Assembly (NCBI RefSeq): GCF_024700885.2
Contig: NZ_CP117016.1
Source: Escherichia coli
Lineage (GTDB): Bacteria; Pseudomonadota; Gammaproteobacteria; Enterobacterales; Enterobacteriaceae
Direction: 5' to 3' (one strand)
DNA: 64,000 nucleotides
A program made the position numbers and the translations under genes. How positions within the stretch are numbered: position 1 is the stretch's first letter; each line of letters starts with the position of its first letter. Under the pieces are notes generated by a model, which saw only the letters and a list, made by a program, of their open reading frames with translations, did no database searches and had not been told where the DNA came from. This document shows, one piece after another, positions 17,620 to 41,620 of the stretch.

Positions 17620-18063
17620 TTAGCGTTGACGATTAGCGATACTGTTCGTTTCCGGGTTCATACGCTCGCGGCGTGAACGCGCGGGCGTCCAGTCCAGCGC
17701 GCCAATACGCACCAGATAAACCAGACCTGCCAGTAACACAAAAATAAAAATTGCAGCTTCCACAAAGCCTACCCAGCCGCTTTCGCGGATAGAGGTTGAC
17801 CATGCGAACAGATACAGCGCTTCAACGTCGAAGATAACGAAGAACATGGCCACCAGATAAAACTTGGCGGACAGGCGTAAGCGGGCGGAGCCGACCGAGT
17901 CGATACCGGATTCAAACGGCACGTTTTTCGACCTCGCGCGTGCGCGACCGCCTAAAAACCAACCGCCTACCAGCATCAGGCAACACAGGCCAATGGCAAC
18001 GATAAGAAAGATAGCGAATGCCCAGTGATGAGCGATGACTTCAGTGGATGTTGACATACTCAT
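17620..18063 (-). CDS. nuoA: NADH-quinone oxidoreductase subunit A
   Basis: 147-aa membrane ORF; first gene of the operon. Confidence 0.95.
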
Positions 18064-18611
18064 TGCTTACTCATCAAAAGTAGCGCCAGATTCACTGCTC
18101 TTCACGGCAGATGGACGCCACATCGATTCATGGGGAGGAATAAAAAAAACCTTACAATCACTGTAGAAATTCTTTTATACAGCTAATTGATGTGGTCTTT
18201 TACTCCTTTCTATAACCTTTTGTCAACTTTAACAAAAGTTTCTTCACATTAGTTTACATAATATCAACACCATTAGCATTTAATGCCCTTTCACCCCAGA
18301 TCCTTGACGACTCCAGGATAATTAGATGTTGTTGAATCGTGTCCGTTGTGAAGCAATGGAAAAAATACGGGTCTATTTTGACAGGAATTTGTGTCGATTC
18401 CTCCCCCCAAAAGAGAGTATTTTCTTGATCTGTGACACGCTTTTGTCATTCCATAACAAAAACGCAGCAACAAATTTACGTATTTTTTAACATCATTGTA
18501 GCAGGTGATTTTTTTCAGGCGATTATTTGTGCGTTCGGGACGTGAATCTCTGGTGATTGAAAAATGAACAGTTTTGTACGTTCTGCACGATACGAGGAAG
18601 GCTTTTTACTA
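18064..18611 (-). promoter_or_regulatory. nuo operon promoter/leader region (AT-rich, about 550 bp)
   Basis: Long AT-rich non-coding region upstream of nuoA; from established knowledge the nuo promoter is complex; individual sites not resolved here. Confidence 0.45.
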
Positions 18612-32773: not shown

Positions 32774-34250
<1,477 letters not shown>

Positions 34251-38999: not shown

Positions 39000-39782
39000 T
39001 TAACCACCATAAACATCAAAATCGAAGTACTTTTTCGCTAATTTCTCGTAAGTACCGTCAGCGCGCATTTCGGCAAAGGCTTTGTTCAGTGCCTCGCGCA
39101 GTTCGTTATCTTCTTTACGCAGGCCCATGCCGGTCCCTACGCCAAACAGTTTTTCATCTTTAACAGACGGGCCACCGAATTTGTAATCTTTACCGACTGG
39201 CTGCTTGAGGAAACCTTCGCTGGCAGCGACCTCATCCTGGAACGCGGCATCAATACGTCCGGCAGTCAGGTCAGAATAAATGTTGTCCTGCCCCTGATAC
39301 GAGACGATTTCAATGCCTTTTGGTGCCCAGTGTTCATTACCGAACGTCTCCTGGGTGGTGCCCTGCAATACGCCTACCCGCTTGCCTTTCAGCGACTCGA
39401 CTGTCGGCTGAATGTCGGAATTTTTCGCCACCACCAGACGAGAATCGGCAGCGTACAGTTTGTCGGTGAAGGCTATTTCTTGCTGACGTTTTTCCGTAAT
39501 GGAAAGCGATGACATGATGGCGTCAATCTTCTTCGCTTTTAAGGACGGGATTAACGCATCCAGTGGGTTTTCGACAAACGTACATTGCGTATTGATGCGT
39601 TTGCACAACTCCTTTGCCAGATCGATATCGAAGCCAACCAGTTCACCTTGTGAATTTTTTGATTCAAATGGCGCATAGGTCGGATCGGTACCGATGCGGA
39701 TGTTTTGCGGAATCGCAGCAAACGCCGCAGTTGCGCTGGAGAAGGCCAGAACCAGAGAGAGCGATAGCACCAGTTTTTTCAT
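39000..39782 (-). CDS. hisJ: Histidine-binding periplasmic protein
   Basis: 260-aa ORF with signal peptide; matches HisJ. Confidence 0.96.
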
Positions 39783-40002
39783 AATGTCCTCAACTGACAG
39801 TCTTTTTATAGGGAATATTTACAGGTTTGTTACACTTATCGTGCCATAAAATTGACCATCAAGGCAAAATATCCCGCCCCGTTAGACGTATTATTTTTCA
39901 TTAAAAATGCTTAAGTATGCATTTCAATGCACCACGATAGTGCAACAAACCTGGCGTGCACCATGATGATCATTCCATCAGGTACAGCTTCCCTGCGACG
40001 TA

Positions 40003-40785
40003 TCAGTCACCGTAGACATTAAAGTCAAAATACTTTTTCGCCATCTTGTCGTAGGTGCCGTCCTGACGCAGCTCGCCAAGCGCCTTATTGAAGGCAGCCG
40101 TCAGTTCCGCATCATCTTTACGTAGCCCTACACCGGTGCCGTCACCGAAGTATTTTTTGTCTTTCACTGATGAGCCAGCAAAGGCGAAATCTTTACCAGC
40201 AGGTTGCTTGAGGAATCCTTCGCTGGCAGCAACTTCATCTTGTAACGCAGCATCCAGACGTCCTGCAGCCAGATCGGAATAGACCAAATCCTGGTTGGCA
40301 TAGGCCACCACATCCACGCCTTTGCTACGCCAGGTCTCGTTAGCGTAAGCTTCCTGGGTTGATCCCTGCAGCACACCCACATGTTTACCTTTCAGTGAAT
40401 CCAGCGTTGGCTGAATCGGCGAACCTTTGGCGGCAATCAAACGAGAATCTGCGGCGTACAACTTGTCGGAGAAAGCAATCTCCTGCTGACGTTTATCGGT
40501 AATGGAGAGCGACGAAATAATGGCGTCGATTTTTTTCGCTTTCAGTGAGGGGATCAGCGCGTCAAAGTCACTGGCAACCCAGGTACATTTCACCTGCATC
40601 CGTTTGCACATCTCGTTACCGAGATCGATATCAAAGCCAACAAAGTCACCTTTGGCATCTTTCGATGAGAACGGCGCATAGGTGGTATCGGTTCCGATAC
40701 GTACCGTCTCCGGTAGCGCCGCATAGCTGGAAGCCGCTGCAGAGAGACCGACTAACAAAGACAGAGCGAGAATCGACTTCTTCAT
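40003..40785 (-). CDS. argT: Lysine/arginine/ornithine-binding periplasmic protein
   Basis: 260-aa ORF with signal peptide; paralog of hisJ; matches ArgT. Confidence 0.96.
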
Positions 40786-40853
40786 ACATAACCCTCAAGT
40801 GAAAATGGCTTTTTTATGTTGTGTATTGTGTTGTGTGTTTGCAGGCTCTTTCA

Positions 40854-40869
40854 TGCAGGTCTTATGCCA
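40854..40869 (-). promoter_or_regulatory. Sigma54 (-24/-12) promoter for argT
   Basis: Minus-strand sequence TGGCATAAGACCTGCA versus consensus TGGCAC-N5-TTGCA; about 70 bp upstream of the argT ATG. Confidence 0.55.
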
Positions 40870-41050
40870 TCTTTACGACAACAGTAACATTCAACGTTAA
40901 ATATGTTAATAAGACGTTGCATTATTGTCCTAAAGTTGAAGATAGCAGGTATGGCGGTTGAATCGCAGCGTTTCGATTCATCGAAAGGAACAAAATGTCG
41001 AGGATTTGATCGCGGTTGCAAAATTGCCCTGAAACAGGGCAACAATGAGG

Positions 41051-41620
41051 TTATGCGCCCTGCCAGCGGGCAAAGAGATCTTCAGGAAGCGTTATGGCGA
41101 ATTGATCGAGTACACGGTTAACCGTCTGATTTATCACATCATCAAGGGATTGCGGGCGATGATAAAACGCCGGAACGGGAGGCATAATCACCGCACCGAT
41201 TTCTGCCGCCTGGGTCATTAAACGCAGATGGCCTAAGTGCAATGGTGTTTCACGCACGCAGAGCACCAGCGGGCGACGCTCTTTCAGCACAACATCTGCC
41301 GCACGGGTCAGTAAGCCATCAGTATAGCTATGGACAATGCCGGACAGGGTTTTGATTGAACAGGGTAAAATCACCATCCCCAGTGTCTGGAAAGAACCGG
41401 AAGAAATGCTGGCAGCAATATCGCGCGCATCGTGCGTCACATCGGCTAATGCCTGCACTTCGCGCAGGGAAAAATCCGTTTCGAGGGATAAGGTCTGGCG
41501 CGCGGCCTGGCTCATCACCAGATGCGTTTCAACATCTGCGACATCGCGCAGAACCTGTAATAAGCGCACGCCATAAATCGCGCCGCTGGCACCGCTGATG
41601 CCTACAATGAGTCGTTTCAT
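41051..41620 (-). CDS. ubiX: Flavin prenyltransferase UbiX
   Basis: 189-aa ORF; matches UbiX. Confidence 0.95.
   Translation of the reverse strand: MKRLIVGISGASGAIYGVRLLQVLRDVADVETHLVMSQAARQTLSLETDFSLREVQALADVTHDARDIAASISSGSFQTLGMVILPCSIKTLSGIVHSYTDGLLTRAADVVLKERRPLVLCVRETPLHLGHLRLMTQAAEIGAVIMPPVPAFYHRPQSLDDVINQTVNRVLDQFAITLPEDLFARWQGA

Follow-up and report, generated by a model that had tools for sequence, protein, structure and literature searches.

The window analysed here is a stretch of 64,000 nucleotides of Escherichia coli, in which the 801 bases round the element under study are 100% identical to several E. coli chromosomes annotated as argT and hisJ in this region. On the minus strand, argT (40785..40003) lies directly upstream of hisJ (39000..39782), which is the first gene of hisJQMP according to the open reading frame list and the RefSeq annotation, and is followed by hisQ, hisM and hisP. 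The spacer between argT and hisJ comprises 220 bp. Within it, 48 nt upstream of the hisJ ATG, there is a sigma54-like sequence, TGGCACGATAAGTGTAA, at 39846..39830 of the minus strand (the hisJ box); as an 18-mer it reads TGGCACGATAAGTGTAAC (39829..39846), in the context TTTTA TGGCAC GATAA GTGTA AC. The initial annotation had described at 39828..39846 a perfect -24 element, TGGCACG, and GT instead of GC at -12, and both statements were confirmed in the minus-strand sequence: TGGCACG occupies 39846..39840, with the GG doublet at 39845/39844, and the -13/-12 dinucleotide at 39833/39832 is GT. The GC doublet expected 10 bp past GG (TTGCW) is replaced by GTGTA, with a C-to-T change at 39832. From this box, a sigma54 start would be predicted near 39820. 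The 61-nt core promoter of hisJ, GT included, occurs without any change in 5401 of the 5421 complete E. coli genomes compared.

The strength of the box was evaluated with a sigma54 matrix derived from 26 Salmonella sites, validated or accepted, in the list of Samuels et al. 2013, with hisJ left out. The E. coli hisJ box reaches 11.4 bits, below all 26 validated sites (leave-one-out range 14.1-23.1 bits), and restoring GC at -12 would lift it only to 14.1 bits; with the same matrix the neighbouring argT sigma54 promoter, TGGCATAAGACCTGCATG (40852..40869, minus strand), taken as internal control, scores 16.3 bits. The hisJ box ranks fourth in the window; for a sequence of 64 kb with matched composition, about 3.9 matches as good or better would be expected. 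The pattern TGGCAC-N6-TGY is present three times in the window against 1.7 expected. As a bare motif, the box does not exceed chance. These figures would agree with a pure coincidence, in which the box is unrelated to sigma54 in both evolution and function: around four matches as good as this one are to be expected in 64 kb, and similar scores are reached by three other sites of the window. In its context, however, the box does exceed chance, because the sole strong NtrC site of the 64 kb is located upstream of it and TGGCAY is conserved in position, being kept in 75 of 79 orthologous spacers. The initial annotation had offered a degenerate or alternative promoter, or a chance match. The first term stands, since the box is orthologous to canonical, high-scoring sigma54 promoters of hisJ in other genera; the last is contradicted by this orthology and by the retention of the upstream NtrC sites. 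Pure chance is therefore effectively excluded, and we regard it as very improbable. The remaining matches in the window were found at 18052..18069 (plus strand, 12.7 bits), at 33008..33025 (minus strand, 12.4 bits) and, inside ubiX, at 41587..41604 (plus strand, 9.8 bits); these three are probably intragenic or chance sites of the kind common in E. coli.

The same bases belong to the sigma70 promoter of hisJ, PhisJ. It has been reported that hisJQMP is transcribed from a sigma70 promoter repressed by ArgR, which binds 17 bp upstream of the -35 (PMC6640053, Charlier laboratory). The supplementary table of Kim et al. 2012, a start map made without nitrogen limitation, places the hisJ transcription start at MG1655 2424859 with a 49-nt leader, which is A39831 of the window (minus strand); the 51 nt printed there, running up to the hisJ start, match the window exactly, with A39831 as the last base, and the offset between MG1655 and the window was verified at the hisJ ATG and at the argT sigma54 site. 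Counting back from this start, the hexamer CACGAT (39843..39838) corresponds to positions -12 to -7 and TG (39846/39845) to -15/-14, with G at 39844, and this is how the extended -10 at 39838..39846 was assigned; A39831 is 7 nt after T39838, with 6 nt between them. The -35 is taken to be TTGCCT (39862..39867, minus strand), 18 bp upstream of the -10 hexamer, because the placement of the ARG boxes puts the point 17 bp downstream of ARG box 2 there. A -35-like hexamer, an 18-bp spacer, TGg, A(-11) and T(-7) are therefore all present, and the published data together with the sequence show that TGG-CACGAT is the TGn-extended -10 of PhisJ, with -35 TTGCCT and +1 at A39831. In other words, TGGCACGAT doubles as an extended -10 element, which was overlooked in the initial annotation, and the bases it had taken for a perfect -24 element are the TGn followed by the opening half of the -10 hexamer.

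The shortening of a spacer from 18 to 17 bp is a classic sigma70 up-mutation. In an evolution experiment with E. coli and yeast, selection for histidine uptake fixed mutations in the hisJ promoter, including two independent 1-bp deletions at -78 (39860) and at -66 (in the T-run 39848..39851), both of which lie inside the 18-bp spacer and reduce it to 17 bp. The -78 deletion, the one measured, raised a GFP reporter from ~80 to ~815, about tenfold. The activity reported in the literature thus increases as the spacer moves toward 17 bp, and the sigma54 motif is untouched by the deletions. A sigma70-type hisJ start was one half of the outcome that the initial annotation had named as speaking against its proposal, and this half is provided by the published start map and the spacer-shortening up-mutations. 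In addition, the RpoD holoenzyme alone binds the argT-hisJ spacer in gSELEX (Shimada 2014). It should be noted that the Escherichia C-to-T change at the sigma54 -12 falls on the -1 position relative to the sigma70 start, which tolerates C as well as T.

Two other assignments were considered for PhisJ. GATAAG was rejected as the -10, since only 3 nt lie between it and the start. The pair TTGAAA-16-TTTAAT, printed for the hisJQMP gSELEX peak (Shimada 2014), was rejected as the main promoter because it fits neither the mapped start nor the up-mutations by spacer deletion. This pair, at 39900..39927 (minus strand), is a good sigma70-like one that overlaps the ARG boxes, and could be a second promoter occluded by ArgR. 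A rule-based consensus sigma70 scan of 39700..40100 returned no promoter; it missed PhisJ because this promoter is too weak for the rule used. The evolution experiment also gave two T-to-A substitutions (minus strand; -86 and -87 from the ATG, 39868..39869) just 5' of the -35, which create GATAAT or TATATT and are unexplained by the present -35/-10 model.

Upstream of PhisJ, the spacer carries an ArgR operator and NtrC sites. The predicted operator (39885..39923, minus strand) consists of ARG box 1, AATGCATACTTAAGCATT (39923..39906), a 3-bp gap and ARG box 2, AATGAAAAATAATACGTC (39902..39885), which leaves 17 bp to the -35. The boxes were located by sequence and match the architecture described in PMC6640053 (two 18-bp boxes, 3 bp apart), and the TGCATAnTTAAGCA block of the operator is conserved in the alignment of orthologues. 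According to the data of the evolution experiment, ArgR represses hisJ ~2.5-fold. NtrC site B, TGCACTATCGTGGTGCA (39928..39944, minus strand), is a 17-bp dyad with one mismatch to TGCACC-N5-GGTGCA; in the 64 kb, where 0.25 sites with at most one mismatch would be expected, there is no other. Site B is also conserved in other genera and lies 98 bp upstream of the hisJ box, with its centre at ~-116 from the predicted sigma54 start. The NtrC-like site A, ATGATCATCATGGTGCA (39957..39973, minus strand), is centred at ~-145 from that start; only its GGTGCA half is good, and this half is nearly invariant in the alignment. Site B and half-site A are thus placed as enhancer sites usually are, ~80-150 bp upstream of a sigma54 promoter.

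In nitrogen-starved E. coli, NtrC ChIP-seq gave a 23.7-fold peak for hisJQMP at 2424941-2425021 (Brown et al. 2014), which in the window is 39913..39993 and covers sites A and B. The argT peak of the same study was weaker, 5.4-fold, and called by eye. Under nitrogen starvation hisJQMP is reported to be up-regulated, with RNA polymerase at its promoter. A footprint of NtrC upstream of hisJ (dhuA) is credited to Ames and Nikaido 1985 by the citation in PMC3844500. Among the orthologous spacers, one to four NtrC sites within 3 mismatches were found in all but one locus. The features of an NtrC enhancer, a 17-bp dyad that is usually present in two or more copies and is bound in vivo, are therefore found at this locus. 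A search of 39600..41100 against Rfam gave no matches.

The comparison across Enterobacteriaceae comprised 80 orthologous loci (L001-L080) of ~30 genera, with 79 spacers compared, and argT is immediately upstream of hisJ in all loci covering the region. The conservation of the motif, which the initial annotation had suggested as a check, was borne out: TGGCAY occurs within 150 nt of the hisJ ATG in the 75 spacers mentioned before, 45-55 nt upstream of the ATG in most genera and further away in a few genera of what we call group B. The anchored alignment places in this group Buttiauxella, Shimwellia, Mangrovibacter, Dryocola and one 'Enterobacter' isolate. Their hisJ spacers present TGGCAT-N5-(A/C)TGCA, with scores of 14-20 bits and NtrC sites upstream, and are devoid of the sigma70-like -35 (TTGCC), while T(-7) is replaced by A. 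Group A is defined by 47 unique sequences carrying the -35 box, and includes Escherichia, Salmonella, Citrobacter, Klebsiella, Raoultella, Enterobacter, Leclercia, Lelliottia, Kosakonia, Kluyvera, Pseudocitrobacter, Pluralibacter and Atlantibacter, among others. Here an invariant TTTGCC stands at a fixed spacing from an invariant TGGCAC(G/A)(A/T)TA, and the TG, A(-11), T(-7), the -35 and the spacing are unchanged in 47/47 sequences.

At -12, group A presents TGCA, CGCA, AGCA, GGCA, GCCA, GACA, TGGC, TGTT and CATA, with TGTA in all Escherichia. A canonical TGCA upstream of hisJ is found in Buttiauxella, Mangrovibacter, Kluyvera and Pseudocitrobacter, and in the last two the -35 box and an 18-bit sigma54 site are present together. 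The -12 TGC is kept in 15 of 37 unique hisJ 18-mers, compared with 22 of 24 argT 18-mers (TGCA) from the same genomes. The bases that sigma70 would read as G(-13), C(-12) and C(-10), which are the GG-C-C of the sigma54 -24 box, are non-consensus for sigma70 and yet invariant over ~25 genera, like the NtrC sites. Sigma70 requirements alone do not explain this invariance, which is easier to explain if sigma54 still reads the -24. As regards the origin of the box, that of Dryocola hisJ, TGGCATAAAACCTGCA, differs by one base from that of E. coli argT, TGGCATAAGACCTGCA; this resemblance suggests, but does not prove, that a tandem argT/hisJ duplication carried the sigma54 promoter along.

Two side observations emerged from the alignment. 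In Cedecea and related isolates (L050, L051, L054, L058) the spacers measure 163-194 nt and have no TGGCAY upstream of hisJ, while an NtrC-like dyad is present. The Escherichia spacer, compared with L020, L013 and L068, does not have ~20-25 nt between NtrC site B and ARG box 1 (39924..39928); many genera have a third NtrC-like dyad in this stretch. In E. coli, site B consequently ends 4 bp from ARG box 1, and its distance to TGGCAC goes from ~118 to 98 bp in Escherichia, roughly two helical turns.

The reading that we favour, with moderate confidence, is that PhisJ, the sigma70 promoter, uses the hisJ box as its extended -10, and that this box overlies a decayed remnant of an ancestral NtrC/sigma54 promoter. 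PhisJ, weakly repressed by ArgR through the two ARG boxes, accounts for the transcription of hisJQMP in ordinary growth. From the comparative sequences, the box would derive from an earlier hisJ promoter that used sigma54 under NtrC activation and to which it contributed the -24 element; the canonical form of this promoter would persist in Buttiauxella, Shimwellia, Mangrovibacter, Dryocola, Kluyvera and Pseudocitrobacter. In the group of Escherichia, Salmonella, Citrobacter, Klebsiella and Enterobacter, a sigma70 promoter would have been laid over the box, after which the -12 would have been freed from constraint. In Escherichia, the C of the -12 would then have changed to T, a pyrimidine still suitable at the sigma70 -1, and the ~25 bp holding the third NtrC-like site would also have been lost. 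The GT is thus most likely a substitution of the Escherichia lineage in a -12 already released from constraint. The direction of the change, with sigma54 first, is inferred from the distribution among genera and the resemblance to argT, in a comparison confined to enterobacterial genera. In E. coli, the sigma54 reading would be largely vestigial, the closed complex with the sigma54 holoenzyme being presumably too weak for detection. Against a vestigial reading count the strong NtrC binding together with the induction of hisJQMP, the invariant -24 bases and the existence of natural promoters with T at -12. The explanation is also weakened because the start-site and sigma54-binding data all come from conditions without NtrC activation.

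The binding data agree with a vestigial sigma54 site. The sigma54 ChIP-seq of E. coli (Bonocora et al. 2015), carried out in cells without NtrC activation, shows no site near hisJ in either its stringent or its relaxed tables, and gSELEX with the RpoN holoenzyme, with or without NtrC, gave a peak only at the ubiX/argT spacer and none at hisJ; occupancy of hisJ by the sigma54 holoenzyme is thus undetected in these literature data, the cells being not starved for nitrogen. For the Salmonella orthologue, in which the -12 GC is intact, a footnote in Samuels et al. 2013 gives the promoter as predicted, with the remark 'not an active promoter', and in the main text of the Salmonella sigma54 study hisJ is absent from the 70 sigma54-enriched ORFs and from the operons induced by the promiscuous activator. 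Neither hisJ nor argT is named in the supplements on the sigma-factor network of Cho et al. 2014 or in the text of Zhao et al. 2010.

A working dual promoter is a possible but doubtful alternative to the decayed remnant. According to it, the box would also serve as a weak sigma54 promoter, with a strong -24 and a poor -12, that strictly requires NtrC and operates only while phosphorylated NtrC is plentiful; it would form too little closed complex for ChIP-seq or gSELEX and be driven by the high-affinity enhancer ~90-145 bp upstream. The near-perfect NtrC site with its half-site at a typical enhancer distance argues for it, as do the strong NtrC ChIP peak, the reports that in nitrogen-starved cells hisJQMP is up-regulated and its promoter carries RNA polymerase, and the invariance of TGGCAC and of the NtrC sites even where the -12 has decayed. 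To our knowledge, the only activation targets of NtrC are sigma54 promoters. Moreover, glnAp2 mutants in the -12 reportedly kept activated transcription, and natural sigma54 promoters with T at -12 are validated and do work: pspA (TTGTAT), pspG (TTGTAA) and hydN, whose TGGCACGATTCGTGTATA is strikingly similar to the hisJ box. On the other hand, sigma54 gave no signal at hisJ in two independent genome-wide assays, one of them with NtrC added; the score is under those of all validated sites; the better-scoring Salmonella orthologue was reported inactive; the -12 has been relaxed in evolution, unlike that of argT; and the induction can be explained by read-through from argT.

The argT promoter has a sigma54 ChIP-seq site at 2425886 (Bonocora et al. 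2015), apart from its RpoN gSELEX peak, and argT-hisJQMP has been treated as one unit in the literature. In E. coli no terminator-like hairpin with a U-run was found 3' of argT, where folding is not significant (z = -1.7), and the only terminator-like hairpin in 39700..40100, at 39888..39875, is poor. Since no intrinsic terminator follows argT, we infer that the induction of hisJQMP in nitrogen starvation would be mainly read-through from the strong argT sigma54 promoter. GC-rich hairpins (GGCCCGG...CCGGGCC) were observed within 40-70 nt past argT in Klebsiella and Raoultella (L067, L069, L073), Buttiauxella (L030-L037) and Franconibacter (L029), and they are absent in E. coli, Salmonella and Citrobacter; therefore, read-through from argT to hisJ may differ between genera.

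Another aspect to mention is the location of the NtrC sites with respect to argT. In the 300 nt upstream of argT (40786..41085) there is no NtrC site above background in Escherichia, Salmonella and most Citrobacter, the best match there, with 4/12 mismatches, being the ubiX terminator hairpin; sites with 0-2 mismatches are present upstream of argT in Enterobacter, Buttiauxella, Cedecea and Pseudocitrobacter. Consequently, the strongest NtrC site near E. coli argT is the one downstream of it, in the argT-hisJ spacer. This distribution bears on an explanation that we find improbable, in which the likeness to sigma54 is irrelevant in this clade and the NtrC sites act either in anti-repression against ArgR or as a downstream enhancer for argT, ~0.9 kb away. 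The first possibility is consistent with the 4 bp between site B and ARG box 1, with the third NtrC-like site that abuts the box in other genera and with the ~2.5-fold repression by ArgR; the second, with an argT upstream region that has no good NtrC site next to a spacer with the strongest site of the 64 kb and the stronger ChIP peak. However, we know of no case of NtrC as an anti-repressor at sigma70 promoters, and the invariance of TGGCAC is explained by neither idea. Furthermore, the argT promoter region placed at the lac locus, without the spacer, responds to NtrC status (glnK deletion), and on a plasmid, also without the spacer, the argT promoter is active with yeast extract as the sole nitrogen source. 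The idea of a downstream enhancer was downgraded because of this response to NtrC at an ectopic site.

A related reading, which we consider rather unlikely, is that the high-affinity NtrC enhancer cluster has been kept through the whole history of the Enterobacteriaceae beside a promoter with a decayed -12, at which transcription now begins from an extended -10 for sigma70 formed out of the former -24 box. If this were the case, NtrC could drive a '-24-only' sigma54 promoter that escapes ChIP, or act on the sigma70 promoter by an indirect route, such as the displacement of ArgR from the ARG box adjoining the NtrC sites; alternatively, the cluster could be a gene-downstream enhancer for argT, whose own promoter region shows no NtrC sites that can be recognised in Escherichia, Salmonella and most Citrobacter.

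The decayed remnant that we favour can be compared with known systems. The dhuA/PhisJ system of Salmonella and E. coli (Ames laboratory; Caldara et al. 2007, as cited in PMC6640053) is the same locus, with a sigma70 promoter, ArgR boxes upstream of the -35 and an NtrC site reportedly footprinted upstream, and a sigma54-like sequence was noted there in Salmonella and judged inactive. With respect to the Salmonella dhuA, the E. coli copy has GT for GC at -12 and a spacer ~20-25 bp shorter. The sigma54-like sequence of hisJ, the NtrC site and the sigma70 promoter are all in the literature already, and the system is known in outline; the comparative picture, in which a -24 box is re-used as a TGn-extended -10 and the -12 decays in a lineage-specific manner, is a modest addition. 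The argT promoter (argTr) is NtrC-dependent, uses sigma54 and drives the paralogous gene of the same cluster, and the hisJ boxes of group B are almost identical to it. TGCA has been retained at argT in nearly every genus, and sigma54 occupies this promoter in vivo; neither holds for the hisJ site. The loss of the canonical -12 is shared with pspA (TTGTAT), pspG (TTGTAA), hydN (GTGTAT) and glnHp2 (TTTCA), which have T at -12 or have lost GC and keep a perfect TGGCAC as hisJ does; these promoters, however, score at least 14 bits leave-one-out and are bound and activated, compared with 11.4 bits for hisJ.

For annotation, the E. coli hisJ site should not be labelled as a sigma54 promoter from the motif alone, given that its bases belong to a mapped sigma70 promoter. 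The box is a clear example of one DNA element for two sigma factors and of turnover of promoter type. It also exposes a small inconsistency in the nitrogen regulon of E. coli, where one of the stronger NtrC ChIP peaks fronts a promoter without detected sigma54 binding.

Sigma54 sequences overlying sigma70 promoters are also found in glmY and glmZ and in the class I/II sites of Schaefer et al. 2015 (argT, chaC, mdfA, patA), where the overlap allows competition or dual use. Sigma54 binding has been demonstrated at those sites, whereas it is undetected at hisJ, where the predicted sigma54 start (~39820) is distinct from the sigma70 start (39831). At argT, competition between sigma54 and sigma70 has been described (Schaefer et al. 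2015). A start of argT has also been mapped, without nitrogen limitation, at MG1655 2425959 (40931 of the window, minus strand; 146-nt leader); this start is upstream of 40852..40869, and therefore argT has a sigma70-type promoter too.
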